Below, piece by piece: positions 2,005 through 9,666 of a stretch of DNA of 19,570 bases. The notes under the pieces are model-generated. The model searched no databases. It had not been told where the DNA came from and was given only the letters and a program-made list of their open reading frames with translations. Position 1 is the stretch's first letter, and every line of letters begins with the position of its first letter. A program made the position numbers and the translations under genes. Source of the DNA: a virus (lineage: Duplodnaviria > Heunggongvirae > Uroviricota > Caudoviricetes). The DNA lies in IMG/VR virus record IMGVR_UViG_2541047862_000007; one strand, 5' to 3'.

Positions 2005-2319
2005 TCACGATAGTTCCGTTTTGTTGAATTCAATTATATCAAGGTCAGAACTTTCGTAATCCTTACCGAATAAAGCAAAACATATCGCGTCAAGTTCTCT
2101 CTTATGTTTGGACGCCCGATCATAATTACCACCCCAACAGCAAATGAATCCACCAAGTACTGCTGATTCAAAAAGTAATGATGCTGCATCAATATGTCTG
2201 AACCAGGAGTCTATAAGTAAAGCAGAGAGTGATATTAATGTTCCCCACCCGCCAATCCTTCTCCATTTCTCAGCTTCATATTTAAGAGAAGCAATATATT
2301 CAATTTTATCTCTCGTCAT
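2005..2319 (-). CDS. Small membrane protein, 104 aa, two predicted transmembrane helices; function unknown
   Basis: Start codon overlaps the stop of the upstream large gene (ATGA); hydrophobic segments GGWGTLISLSALLI and AVLGGFICCWGG; followed by a terminator. Confidence 0.6.
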   Translation of the reverse strand: MTRDKIEYIASLKYEAEKWRRIGGWGTLISLSALLIDSWFRHIDAASLLFESAVLGGFICCWGGNYDRASKHKRELDAICFALFGKDYESSDLDIIEFNKTELS

Positions 2320-7135: not shown

Positions 7136-9666
7136 TATTCAACCCTCACGACAATAGCTTCATTGGTTCTGGGATCTGTTGCCCAGCGTCCGCTACCATT
7201 TACCAGCCGATACCGGTTATTGCCGATATTAACTGGTGTGAAGTTTGACACTGCATTTACGTTAAGTCCGGCTTCTTTCAGTGCTTGTTTCGCAGATGTG
7301 GTATAGCGATCTTTGAAAGTAGATTTATCCATGCCGAAAGGCATTACAACGTCGCCGCCATTAAAATCCTTGTATATACCGCCAGTAGCATACTTCACGG
7401 CATCAGCAACAGTGTCTGTATCAGGCATACTGGTTCTTACCGTAGATGCATCACCTGATTGATAAGCTATTCCTGCGTAAGCGGCTTTGAAAAGGCTATA
7501 ACTGATCTGACGTAACTGCGGGTTACGGGCAAATGCGTTACCTACCTGTTTGTCGAAAGCGTCTTTCATCTTATCTTCGCTCGGCAACTGTACCGGAGTT
7601 ATGCCCGCATTCTTCATGGCCTTCGTCGGATTCAGTAGTTGGTCACCGGAAAGAATAACCTTTGCAACGTCGTACTTGTTCATCGTCGGCTTATACCCGA
7701 TGAACTGACTATATGGGATCGACGGTCTGGTGTTATCGTACTGATTATCCGGCGTGCCCAGCAGCAGCGCAGAATAGGCTGTTGCCGCACTGTTCGGAGC
7801 AATTACAGATGCCACCTGCCGTATTGCTGGCGCAGGCAGCTTCTCCCCCATGCTCTGCAACAGTTTAATTGTCTGGTCAACGTTCTGAGTGCCGCGCACC
7901 TGCTGTGCCAGCGCAGCCGCCTCTTCACTGTTGAGGATTGGGGCATTAATTCCCAACGCGCGTAAGCTTTCCTGCGACGAGAAACGGTTAGCCACCTCGG
8001 CAGTGATGTCGTCAGGGTTGTTGCTGGTGATCGGCTTATAGGCTCCGATTTCCACCGCTGCACTAAACGGATTATTCTGCCTCTGGGTTATTACCTTCGT
8101 GGCTGCCGCCGATACCCGGTCGAATAACTCCGCACGAGACGCATACCCCTCCCCTGTCTCACCAGTATCCGGGCGTAATTGCTCAACATATGCGGTAATG
8201 CTGCTTGTCGGCATGTTGCGGAAAGAGCCTATATACTGTCCGGCGATCTGCAAATTTCTGAACTCGGTATATCGCAGGTTTCCTTCTCTGACACCATAAG
8301 CAGCAATGAACTCACCCTCACCAGGCGGGTTAGGAAATTCAACGCCACGCATATACGCAGCCGTTGCATCGCGAACCCGGCTTTCGAGCATCGTTCTATA
8401 TTCAGCCTGCTGCTGTCTGGCTAATGCATCCGTCTGTCGCAACACGCTGGCCTGATCTGATTCACTTAAAGCATCGAACCAAGCTACACCGGTATAACGT
8501 TTATTTTTTGTCGGTAGCTGAGAAAGCCCCAGTGCGGCACTAACGCCAGCGGCCAATTGCTGATCACTGTACGGCTGACTGCCTTGCTCATGATGAATAA
8601 TTGCTTTGCACAGAGATTTCAGTGTGTCAGGATTTGATGCGTCAAGCGGCTGGTCAGGAGTTACACCGAGCTGAGCACATACTGCCCGTATATAAGCATC
8701 AGTTTTATTATCATCACTGGCCGGTGCCCAGCGATTAATTATTTCGCTGATGGTGTCATAACCCTGACGCTGATACGACAGCAAATTGCGACCAAGCGCG
8801 CGAATACCGTGTTCAGGGGTTTCGAATTTGGCAAAGCGACCATCATCACCAGTCTGCCCAACCCACGGATTAGTTTTGCTGTATTCAAGATTGCCGGGGT
8901 TATTGTTGCGTATACCGCGGGTACGATCGGAAGAGCCACTATCTGCTACAGCACGGCGAGATCCAGCAGCAGTATCGCTTAACTCGCCGTTTTGCTGTCT
9001 TACCTGAAGATAGTTTGCTCCAATAGCATTTTGAGCAGTTGCTTTTGCTGTTGCTTCTTTAAACTCGATTTTCTTGGCCTGGATTTGCTCGTCGCTCCAG
9101 CCATGCGCAATACCGTAATCCTCAATTTGCTGGAAAGTTTGCGTATTAGCCAATATGTATGCTGCGTTGTCGCCATATAATGCTGAGGCATTTTTACCAT
9201 TATTCAGCAGTGTCGCCTGAAACTGGCCTTCTTCGTAGGCATTTATTTGCCCTATCTCGTACCTCCCGGCCTGCGTAGCGAACTGAATACGCTGCTGCTG
9301 CGCCTGCTGCATGAAAGCATTACGAGCCTGTTCATCCGGCAGCGACATAGCCAGTTGTTCGATCTGAGCATCAAACTGCTGTGTATACTCATGGCCTTTT
9401 CCAATAGCATTTTTCCCTTTCAGGTTAAGCAATCCTGTTTCAGGATTATTCAGCAGATCACTGCCTGTCTGACTGAGTTTAAGGGATGCCTCCTGAACCA
9501 AGGCAATATTGGCGCGCTGTTTTGCCTGACCAAGAACATCAATTGCCTCTGTCCCTGCCCGAACAAAAGCATCACCAATACCTGGCTGAGAAAACGTCTG
9601 CAAGCCTGCTGACTGAACTCCACGGCTCTCAACCTGGCGTCCGGATACTGTTGGTACGACTGGCAT
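7135..9666 (-). CDS. Large hypothetical protein, 843 aa; Gln/Ala/Asn-rich, contains a GIRNNNPGNL motif; no confident family assignment
   Basis: Long ORF with a GGGGG Shine-Dalgarno about 4 nt upstream of the ATG; stop overlaps the start of the next gene (ATGA). Confidence 0.85.
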   Translation of the reverse strand: MPVVPTVSGRQVESRGVQSAGLQTFSQPGIGDAFVRAGTEAIDVLGQAKQRANIALVQEASLKLSQTGSDLLNNPETGLLNLKGKNAIGKGHEYTQQFDAQIEQLAMSLPDEQARNAFMQQAQQQRIQFATQAGRYEIGQINAYEEGQFQATLLNNGKNASALYGDNAAYILANTQTFQQIEDYGIAHGWSDEQIQAKKIEFKEATAKATAQNAIGANYLQVRQQNGELSDTAAGSRRAVADSGSSDRTRGIRNNNPGNLEYSKTNPWVGQTGDDGRFAKFETPEHGIRALGRNLLSYQRQGYDTISEIINRWAPASDDNKTDAYIRAVCAQLGVTPDQPLDASNPDTLKSLCKAIIHHEQGSQPYSDQQLAAGVSAALGLSQLPTKNKRYTGVAWFDALSESDQASVLRQTDALARQQQAEYRTMLESRVRDATAAYMRGVEFPNPPGEGEFIAAYGVREGNLRYTEFRNLQIAGQYIGSFRNMPTSSITAYVEQLRPDTGETGEGYASRAELFDRVSAAATKVITQRQNNPFSAAVEIGAYKPITSNNPDDITAEVANRFSSQESLRALGINAPILNSEEAAALAQQVRGTQNVDQTIKLLQSMGEKLPAPAIRQVASVIAPNSAATAYSALLLGTPDNQYDNTRPSIPYSQFIGYKPTMNKYDVAKVILSGDQLLNPTKAMKNAGITPVQLPSEDKMKDAFDKQVGNAFARNPQLRQISYSLFKAAYAGIAYQSGDASTVRTSMPDTDTVADAVKYATGGIYKDFNGGDVVMPFGMDKSTFKDRYTTSAKQALKEAGLNVNAVSNFTPVNIGNNRYRLVNGSGRWATDPRTNEAIVVRVE

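Follow-up and report, generated by a model that had tools for sequence, protein, structure and literature searches.

Phage satellites are known to exploit their helpers in several ways: by stealing or remodelling capsids (P4 and the Staphylococcus aureus pathogenicity islands, SaPIs), by redirecting the terminase (Rpp of the phage-inducible chromosomal islands, PICIs), by making capsids of their own (capsid-forming PICIs, cf-PICIs) and by adapting tails. EcCIMP1, a PICI of Escherichia coli MP1, excises when the podophage vB_EcoP_Kapi1 is induced and is transduced by Kapi1 (PMC11773190). Here we analyze an island of E. coli with a homologous backbone, most of which is contained in IMG/VR record IMGVR_UViG_2541047862_000007. 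The window, as we call this whole stretch of 19,570 nucleotides, carries a four-gene operon whose three large products are orthologs of the ejection proteins of the Uetakevirus epsilon15.

EcCIMP1 resembles this island in its size (about 20 kb), in its integration at a tRNA gene and in its backbone, with amino-acid identities of 66% for the integrase, 78% for AlpA, 60% for AntA and 62% for the DUF927 primase. It also has an ejection-type block downstream of the primase: a DUF2824 protein, a "phage DNA ejection protein" and a 906-residue lytic transglycosylase protein follow directly. The authors noted that these proteins resemble Kapi1 and DNA transfer proteins, and suggested a role in packaging or head morphogenesis, not in ejection (PMC11773190). 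In contrast to the epsilon15-type genes of the island, the ejection genes of EcCIMP1 are of the P22/Kapi1 type, and there is no BLAST-level similarity between the two sets. The induction and transfer of EcCIMP1 are proven by experiment, whereas the island is known here from sequence alone. A literature search for satellites with ejection or internal virion proteins returned nothing apart from EcCIMP1; a PICI with an ejectosome module has one published but uninterpreted analogue.

Homology of the operon to Uetakevirus ejection genes

The first-pass annotation of this DNA could not place any of the three large proteins of the operon in a known family. Comparison with phage genomes by tblastn does place them: the 843-residue protein is 79% identical to epsilon15 gp15 and the 918-residue protein is 89% identical to gp17, both over the full length, while the 686-residue protein matches gp16 on either side of a central gap (84% identity over residues 1-277 and 74% over residues 480-686). 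All three match PHROGs with E-values from 1e-137 to 1e-295, including an end-to-end match of the 843-residue protein to phrog_992 (E=1e-289), a match of the 686-residue protein to phrog_1145, and a match of the 918-residue protein to phrog_684, a "virion structural protein" (E=2e-295). At the nucleotide level, similarity to epsilon15 starts exactly at the gp15 ATG and ends about 2 bases past the gp17 stop. Searches of Pfam, NCBIfam and PADLOC gave no match for any of the four operon proteins; the informative searches were those of PHROGs, tblastn and the PDB. These matches mark the three large proteins as full-length orthologs of epsilon15 gp15, gp16 and gp17, that is, as internal virion or ejection proteins. 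Proteomics by Kropinski in 2007 and genetics by Guichard in 2013 reportedly placed gp15 and gp17 in the epsilon15 virion. A profile comparison by Hardies et al identified epsilon15 gp17 as a homolog of the T7 internal virion protein D, gp16 (PMC4819975).

The gp15-like protein also reveals something of its likely activity. Residues 248-403 match the N-terminus of Gp29 (PDB 9vvp, E=4e-39) and a solved endolysin (7q47, E=2e-16), and the protein matches PHROG 7182, "tail injection transglycosylase", as well. This region is predicted to be the cell-wall-cutting domain that is typical of ejection proteins.

The layout of the operon is essentially as first described, with four coupled minus-strand genes between two terminators. 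The junctions, given at first as ATGA/TAATG overlaps, are one-base stop/start overlaps: TAATG at 7135, TAATG at 5075, and TGATG at 2319. The same four genes are annotated by RefSeq in near-identical genomes, as hypothetical proteins; the mechanical open reading frame (ORF) of the 918-residue protein starts at an upstream GTG and would yield 925 residues. The sequence features that had been pointed out are also there, including GIRNNNPGNL at residue 251 of the 843-residue protein and a glycine-rich stretch (residue 184) and HEALH (residue 355) in the 686-residue protein; a motif check likewise found no Walker A motif in the operon proteins. Alanine, glycine, serine, glutamine and asparagine together make up 34-42% of the three large proteins.

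To these shared features of the proteins we can add shared features of the gene cluster. The island and Uetakevirus have in common the gene order gp15-gp16-gp17, the one-base coupling of stop and start codons, the muralytic domain of gp15, and a small membrane gene with a palindrome and terminator after gp17. At this end the window (1951-2009, including the terminator) is 96.6% identical to phiV10 19492-19550, the end of the equivalent operon. The differences are equally clear. The island operon does not lie in a phage genome and is not preceded by gp11-gp14; it is preceded instead by the PICI leader gene p68, which has no counterpart in epsilon15, phiV10 or the ECE218 prophage. Homologs of gp12, gp13 and gp14 are absent from the window and from the satellite loci L010-13, and present in about 55 full phage loci. 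Finally, the middle 235 residues of gp16 are replaced in the island by an orphan domain that contains an HExxH motif.

The position after gp17 is always taken by a small membrane protein, and these proteins are unrelated in sequence. In the window it is p104, which has one clear hydrophobic segment (residues 43-64) and one weaker one. It has no counterpart in epsilon15; in about 12 complete Uetakevirus contigs, however, gp17 is directly followed by a homolog that is 80-84% identical. Elsewhere the protein has 98 residues in the satellite of strain F11 (L004 14242-14538), 113 in that of M21170 (L006 13663-14004), 64 in epsilon15 (L001 19326-19520) and 46 in phiV10 (L005 19345-19485). Judged from these sequences, the slot behaves as a variable mini-cassette. 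In M21170, a broken copy of the F11-type gene adjoins the 113-residue gene.

These genes are under purifying selection. Among three satellite copies, the ratio of nonsynonymous to synonymous substitution rates (dN/dS) is 0.16-0.28 for gp15, 0.02-0.06 for gp16, 0.20-0.28 for gp17, and 0.03-0.07 for the primase. With pairwise values of 0.02-0.28, these genes are real and maintained, and are not chance ORFs.

The central domain of the gp16-like protein stands apart from the rest of the operon. The corresponding part of the window (5667-6365) has no nucleotide similarity to epsilon15 or ECE218, and a tblastn search of 50,697 phage records with the domain finds no match. In a set of 1.84 billion representative proteins the sole match is one identical fragment, and comparison with Pfam and the PDB at E<=10 yields only noise. 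A word-indexed protein search with the domain (window 5666-6328) was empty even for its parent, WP_021549390 (RefSeq), a protein that the database apparently lacks. The domain occurs only in 37 E. coli genomes, where all copies are at least 99.5% identical; at the same position 58 of 67 related loci have a different type of linker, rich in proline and alanine with a coiled-coil-like stretch. The domain thus appears to be private to this satellite lineage. An AlphaFold model from the single sequence is unreliable (predicted local distance difference test, pLDDT, 47) and puts two strands before the HExxH helix; an HEALH helix after two strands would be compatible with a zincin, and this order of elements is all that speaks for the assignment.

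Ejection proteins with passenger domains that act inside the cell have been described, including the virion RNA polymerase gp50 of N4 and gp60 of Pseudomonas phage H66, which has a methylase site (PMC4819975). The gp16-like protein resembles them in that a foreign domain is embedded in an ejection protein and would be delivered into the recipient; it differs in that this domain has no detectable relative or confirmed fold. By analogy, it is reasonable to read the domain as a candidate injected effector.

The virion-module slot and exchange with Uetakevirus

In near-identical complete genomes (99.9% over window 1425-19570), the island spans about 19.3 kb between yqeG and the tRNA-Gly gene glyU. 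The tRNA gene lies 165 bp past the right end of the window and the left end of the island about 1 kb beyond the other, beside yqeG. Annotation, Pfam and PHROGs reveal no capsid, portal, protease, terminase, tail, tailspike or lysis genes in the island. Integrase, AlpA and primase lie in one orientation, and the size falls within the range of about 10-20 kb for PICIs; by these features we class the island as a PICI-type phage satellite of E. coli. Reading from the integrase, the genes encode the tyrosine integrase, a 267-residue protein, AlpA, AntA/B, BRO-N, an Icd-like protein, DUF4222 and DUF927. The DUF927 primase-helicase is followed by SSB, ProQ/FinO, a 138-residue protein, a frameshifted PerC gene, a terminator, p68 and the operon.

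The first-pass annotation had described an ejection-protein-like set in a satellite-like island without capsid or tail genes, and here homology and the complete chromosomal context agree. It had also said that the idea would fall with full-length homology to structural proteins of an intact prophage that continues beyond the window. The homology to phage structural proteins is full length, as described above; no intact prophage continues beyond the window in the complete genomes. We considered an intact or decayed Uetakevirus prophage and rejected it, given the chromosomal genes on both sides and the lack of other structural genes. A deleted Uetakevirus prophage was rejected as well: the early region is unrelated to those of epsilon15 and phiV10, which use RecET and replication genes of the DnaT/P type.

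The position of the operon becomes meaningful when the island is compared to its sibling PICIs. In the cf-PICI L009, a backbone of DUF927, SSB and ProQ genes that is about 87-90% identical in nucleotide sequence to the window is followed by genes for major capsid protein, protease, portal, connector, HNH and terminase. In the PICI L008, the SSB gene, the terminator, the AT-rich leader and p68 are 89-96% identical to those of the window (96% for the terminator), and window 9733-10085 is 89% identical to the region upstream of the L008 capsid gene. There, p68 is directly followed by a gene for a fusion of ClpP protease and major capsid protein. The similarity ends 30 nt past the p68 stop. The same leader thus appears to drive a capsid operon in L008 and the ejection operon in the window. 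Of 41 related primase loci in Enterobacterales genomes that represent their species, three have cf-PICI capsid modules, one has the protease/capsid fusion and one has the ejection module. The capsid, portal, protease, connector and terminase set is present in L009, L083, L087 and L099 and absent from the island.

These comparisons indicate that the ejection operon occupies the virion-module slot that capsid genes fill in sibling PICIs; the word "cargo", which had been used for it at first, is therefore the wrong one. The cf-PICIs and classical E. coli PICIs are of the same backbone family and, like the island, have a virion-related operon downstream of the replication genes. Theirs, however, consists of capsid, portal, protease, connector and terminase genes, or of the protease/capsid fusion with DUF1441, whereas the island has ejection proteins only. 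A promoter scan of the operon leader (9970-10075) found no strong sigma-70-like site, and given this lack the leader is probably activator-dependent; it has no similarity to the late promoter regions of the phages. L009 itself (NZ_AP042666, 4120-20858) sits inside the large terminase gene of a lambdoid prophage, embedded in its helper, and is flanked by the two halves of the split terL.

The module is found in a minority of E. coli strains and in more than one form. Of 5,426 complete E. coli genomes, 45 have the junction between the backbone and gp15, and 37 have the gp16 type of the window. A second integration site, with a 12-bp repeat, lies between dinD and yicC; there the same operon is accompanied by another integrase. 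In strain F11, the same backbone at the same tRNA-Gly site carries a different triad, of 837, 600 and 824 residues. The 600- and 824-residue proteins match phiV10 proteins 19 and 20 at 97-99% amino-acid identity but share no more than 27-30% with the gp16 and gp17 of the window, so there are two deeply different types of triad. In this family of satellites, then, the module is both kept and exchanged.

What the two satellites share marks out the borders of the exchange. Both have the part of gp15 that encodes the first 511 residues (8132-9666; 99% nucleotide identity) and the downstream palindrome and terminator, which evidently served, on this comparison, as recombination flanks. The same N-terminal part of gp15 is 85% identical to phiV10, and 85-92% identical in nucleotide sequence to several hundred E. 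coli Uetakevirus prophages. Synonymous divergence (dS) among satellite copies (against L006 and L007) is 0.08-0.23 for gp15 and 0.01-0.03 for gp16, gp17 and the primase, up to about 20-fold higher in gp15, which indicates frequent recombination in this gene. Because of the F11 triad, the shared flanks, the divergence of gp15, and the similarity of its N-terminal half to prophages, we conclude that the satellite lineage repeatedly exchanges its ejection module with Uetakevirus genomes. This exchange is the best available pointer to a Uetakevirus helper.

A 14-bp palindrome, (T/C)GTGACATGTCAC(A/G), stands beside terminator hairpins at the boundaries of the Uetakevirus late region: upstream of terS, after terL, and after the ejection operon. 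It is found at 2141, 19516 and 39611 in epsilon15 (L001), at 2261 and 19492 in phiV10 (L005), at 1996-2009 in the window and at 5545 in the satellite L050; by chance, we estimate, one would expect about 0.006 sites per phage genome. It lies at the 3' end of the operon in the island and 31 nt upstream of the gp15 start in the L050 lineage. The palindrome may be the site of a late regulator, such as the gp49-like protein, whose gene immediately precedes the first copy.

Satellites with this kind of module are found outside of E. coli as well. A scan of IMG/VR with gp17 yielded 71 loci, mostly complete Uetakevirus genomes with gp12-14 upstream and the tailspike downstream. The E. coli satellite accounts for five loci, and three (L050, L052 and L060), not from E. 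coli, make up a second satellite lineage. In this lineage, an Ash protein, a Zn-ribbon/Toprim/DUF927 primase (61%), SSB, gp15 (74%), gp16 (76%) and gp17 (88%) are followed by Abi_2 and the integrase; gp12-14 and the tailspike are lacking. In Pectobacterium zantedeschiae, locus L109 runs from tRNA-Arg through int, AlpA, an antirepressor, the primase, cargo genes, SSB and a 65-residue ORF to gp15-like (49%) and gp16-like (52%) genes. Both lineages carry other genes of possible interest. The Abi_2 abortive-infection gene of L050 (17195-18157) lies between the ejection operon and the integrase, like the defence hotspot of P4. In L109, an opposite-strand block between the primase and SSB (13137-17426) encodes proteins with QueC-like and nucleoside 2-deoxyribosyltransferase domains, and may, from these domains, be a cassette for DNA modification of the 7-deazaguanine type or for defence.

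Boundaries and other genes of the island

The coordinates of all features are given in Table 1. The far boundary of the island rests on comparison with strain F11 and on the flanking repeat of the tRNA-Gly site, both outside of the window; the repeat is only 11 bp long (GGCGAAGGGAA) and lies at the far end. A tRNA scan of the window found none. About 950 bp separate the IS110-family insertion from the island's distal end, and the closest relatives lack the insertion.

Table 1 Features of the window, numbered from its first letter
Feature	Coordinates	Strand	Basis or remark
IS110-family insertion, 398-residue transposase gene at 1-1197	1-1424	minus	not part of the island
Phage-derived operon end: palindrome CGTGACATGTCACA (1996-2009), then terminator hairpin (1979-1996)	1979-2009	minus	
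p104, small probable membrane protein, 104 residues, last gene of the operon	2005-2319	minus	hydrophobic segment
gp17-like ejection protein gene, 918 residues from ATG	2319-5075	minus	PHROG 684 and identity to epsilon15 gp17
gp16-like ejection protein gene, 686 residues	5075-7135	minus	PHROG 1145 and identity to epsilon15 gp16
Orphan central domain of gp16-like protein, residues 261-495, HEALH at residue 355	5651-6355	minus	local GC dip to about 0.41
gp15-like ejection protein gene, 843 residues	7135-9666	minus	PHROG 992 and identity to epsilon15 gp15
Predicted muralytic (peptidoglycan hydrolase) domain of gp15-like protein, residues ~245-405, with GIRNNNPGNL	8452-8934	minus	PDB and PHROG
p68, small satellite-specific leader gene	9763-9969	minus	match to PHROG 4934
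AT-rich leader/promoter region of the virion-module operon	9970-10075	minus	sequence
Intrinsic terminator at the end of the replication/regulatory genes, immediately before the operon leader	10076-10097	minus	9-bp stem and T-run
PerC-family regulator gene	10102-10327	minus	RefSeq
p138, ProQ/FinO protein, SSB	10336-11692	minus	
DUF927 primase/helicase-type replication protein and DUF4222 protein (PICI pri-rep module)	11903-14328	minus	
Regulatory block: p85, Icd-like/repressor-like, BRO-N and AntA/B antirepressors, AlpA	14331-17234	minus	
267-residue protein and tyrosine integrase	17430-19570	minus	

Within the regulatory block, the mechanical 396-residue ORF at 14581-15771 is spurious; RefSeq has the Icd-like gene at 14581-14916 instead, and this gene also matches a PHROG "transcriptional repressor". 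Two small divergent YlcI-like genes lie on the plus strand in RefSeq (14990-15187 and 15245-15442). The region from 14581 to 15442 is probably the regulatory switch of the island. The product of p138 (10336-10752) matches the PHROG "anti-repressor Ant" over residues 57-127 and a terminase PHROG over residues 5-68 (E=2e-10); this weak terminase match, of 64 residues, is the only hint in the island of a possible packaging-specificity factor. In all inspected copies, from four genomes and two integration sites, the annotation of the PerC gene shows a frameshift, which suggests either a conserved pseudogene or a shorter or recoded gene that is mis-annotated. The PerC-like gene of EcCIMP1 represses LEE, the enterocyte effacement locus.

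The island also resembles P4-like satellites, with a P4-type integrase, AlpA, an Icd-like gene and a primase-helicase. In contrast to P4, however, the presumed helper of the island is a podophage, not a P2-like myophage, and Pfam and PHROGs reveal no homologs of psu, delta or sid among the island proteins.

Possible roles of the ejection module

We favor the idea that the satellite-encoded ejection proteins are built into helper-made capsids, to which we assign a probability of about 60%. Given an operon of ejection genes in the slot of a PICI, the satellite appears to bring its own DNA-injection machinery. When a Uetakevirus helper enters lytic growth in a cell that carries the island, the island would excise and replicate (AlpA and the DUF927 primase), the operon would be transcribed from the island's own p68 leader, and the satellite gp15, gp16 and gp17 would be assembled into helper procapsids. 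The helper would supply the outer-membrane core protein gp14, the capsid, the tail and the terminase. In the next cell, gp15, gp16 and gp17 would exit the capsid to form a periplasmic and inner-membrane conduit for the satellite DNA, the muralytic domain of gp15 cutting the cell wall and gp17 acting as the counterpart of T7 gp16, or internal virion protein D. The island and its relatives (about 19-20 kb) are roughly half the size of a Uetakevirus genome (38-42 kb); that two copies of the island per headful would fit is speculation only.

Several benefits can be imagined, all of them speculative. Entry might become independent of the state or allele of the helper's ejection genes, for example where helper prophages are decayed or mismatched. 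The satellite might evade superinfection exclusion at the inner membrane of helper lysogens: in P22, the ejection proteins gp16 and gp20 mediate the exclusion caused by the inner-membrane protein SieA, escape from SieA maps to them, and foreign ejection genes give partial resistance to SieA. In this lineage, the extra HExxH domain embedded in gp16 might be injected as well. A more ambitious version combines these thoughts: a class of PICIs would re-arm helper capsids with a satellite ejectosome and deliver into cells that exclude the ejection proteins of the helper (such as helper lysogens with inner-membrane exclusion), and the orphan HExxH enzyme domain of gp16 would be injected as an effector of establishment or anti-defence. 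We consider this version as a whole to be unlikely.

A number of observations weigh against incorporation into helper capsids. Pfam, PHROGs and NCBIfam reveal no genes for packaging redirection in the island (small terminase, Rpp, capsid-size), and in comparing terS regions for packaging signals only the palindrome matched, with no pac site. Most of the listed genomes that carry the island show a single gp15-like locus, and two such loci occur in 27 of 424 genomes at the most, so carriers do not as a rule have a Uetakevirus beside the island. Since ejection proteins are taken up by the procapsid ahead of the DNA, the satellite copies would reach helper virions too, with no automatic advantage for the satellite. 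The helper already makes ejection proteins, and a duplicate of 7.6 kb needs a benefit at which we can only guess.

Packaging into helper particles and exclusion are the two leading explanations, and exclusion is the main rival. Here the proteins, instead of being packaged or in addition to it, would act in the resident cell, disturbing the ejectosome of an incoming Uetakevirus or poisoning helper particles, with the effect that the host is protected and the helper is limited. EcCIMP1 adds to superinfection immunity against Kapi1, yet PADLOC and DefenseFinder found no known defence system in it (PMC11773190); in our island, too, PADLOC detects no defence gene (0 families for 10 proteins). The conduit is a proven point of attack, as SieA of P22 shows, and both the variable small membrane protein after gp17 and the private central domain of the satellite gp16 would fit such a role. 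The immunity of EcCIMP1 has not been mapped to its ejection-type genes, however. Moreover, the three proteins retain their full length, share 79-89% identity with functional phage proteins and evolve under purifying selection, and the F11 variants are 97-99% identical to phiV10 proteins; from a decoy or poison one would expect truncation or divergence. The operon also sits in a late, virion-type slot behind a terminator, with no evident constitutive promoter. On balance we regard exclusion as somewhat unlikely.

A special case of incorporation into helper capsids is that the module insures the satellite against faulty partners, letting it use helpers whose large ejection genes are mutated or incompatible. 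These three genes make up about 7.2 kb of a helper genome of about 39.7 kb, a large mutational target, and satellites carry either of two triad types that are 27-30% identical. The authors of EcCIMP1 proposed a similar "insurance" role for a second AlpA that replaces the Xis of the helper (PMC11773190). But the island lacks gp13 and gp14, which are needed as well, and we think it quite unlikely that insurance is the explanation.

That the operon is a neutral relic, a fragment of a Uetakevirus late operon that recombined into a PICI and hitch-hikes without a role, is very improbable: the borders of the module do match phage gene borders exactly (from the gp15 ATG to the phage terminator), as a single illegitimate capture would leave them, but 7.6 kb of intact, coupled ORFs persist in 37-49 genomes at two integration sites with a dN/dS of 0.02-0.28, F11 has an independent second type of allele, the same architecture recurs in Pectobacterium and in a third lineage at 49-88% identity, and EcCIMP1 has an analogous module.

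If satellite ejection proteins are indeed built into helper capsids, then DNA-ejection machinery supplied by a satellite would be a new layer of phage piracy, one that concerns entry into the next cell; ejection proteins decide whether DNA passes the envelope and its exclusion proteins. Many "type C" PICIs have no recognisable packaging module; some of them, of which EcCIMP1 is one example, would then gain a concrete function. Satellites and helpers swap alleles of the epsilon15 and phiV10 types, and therefore offer a ready-made test system for the diversity of ejection proteins. In practical terms, islands of this kind could help to adjust the delivery range of transducing particles based on podophages.

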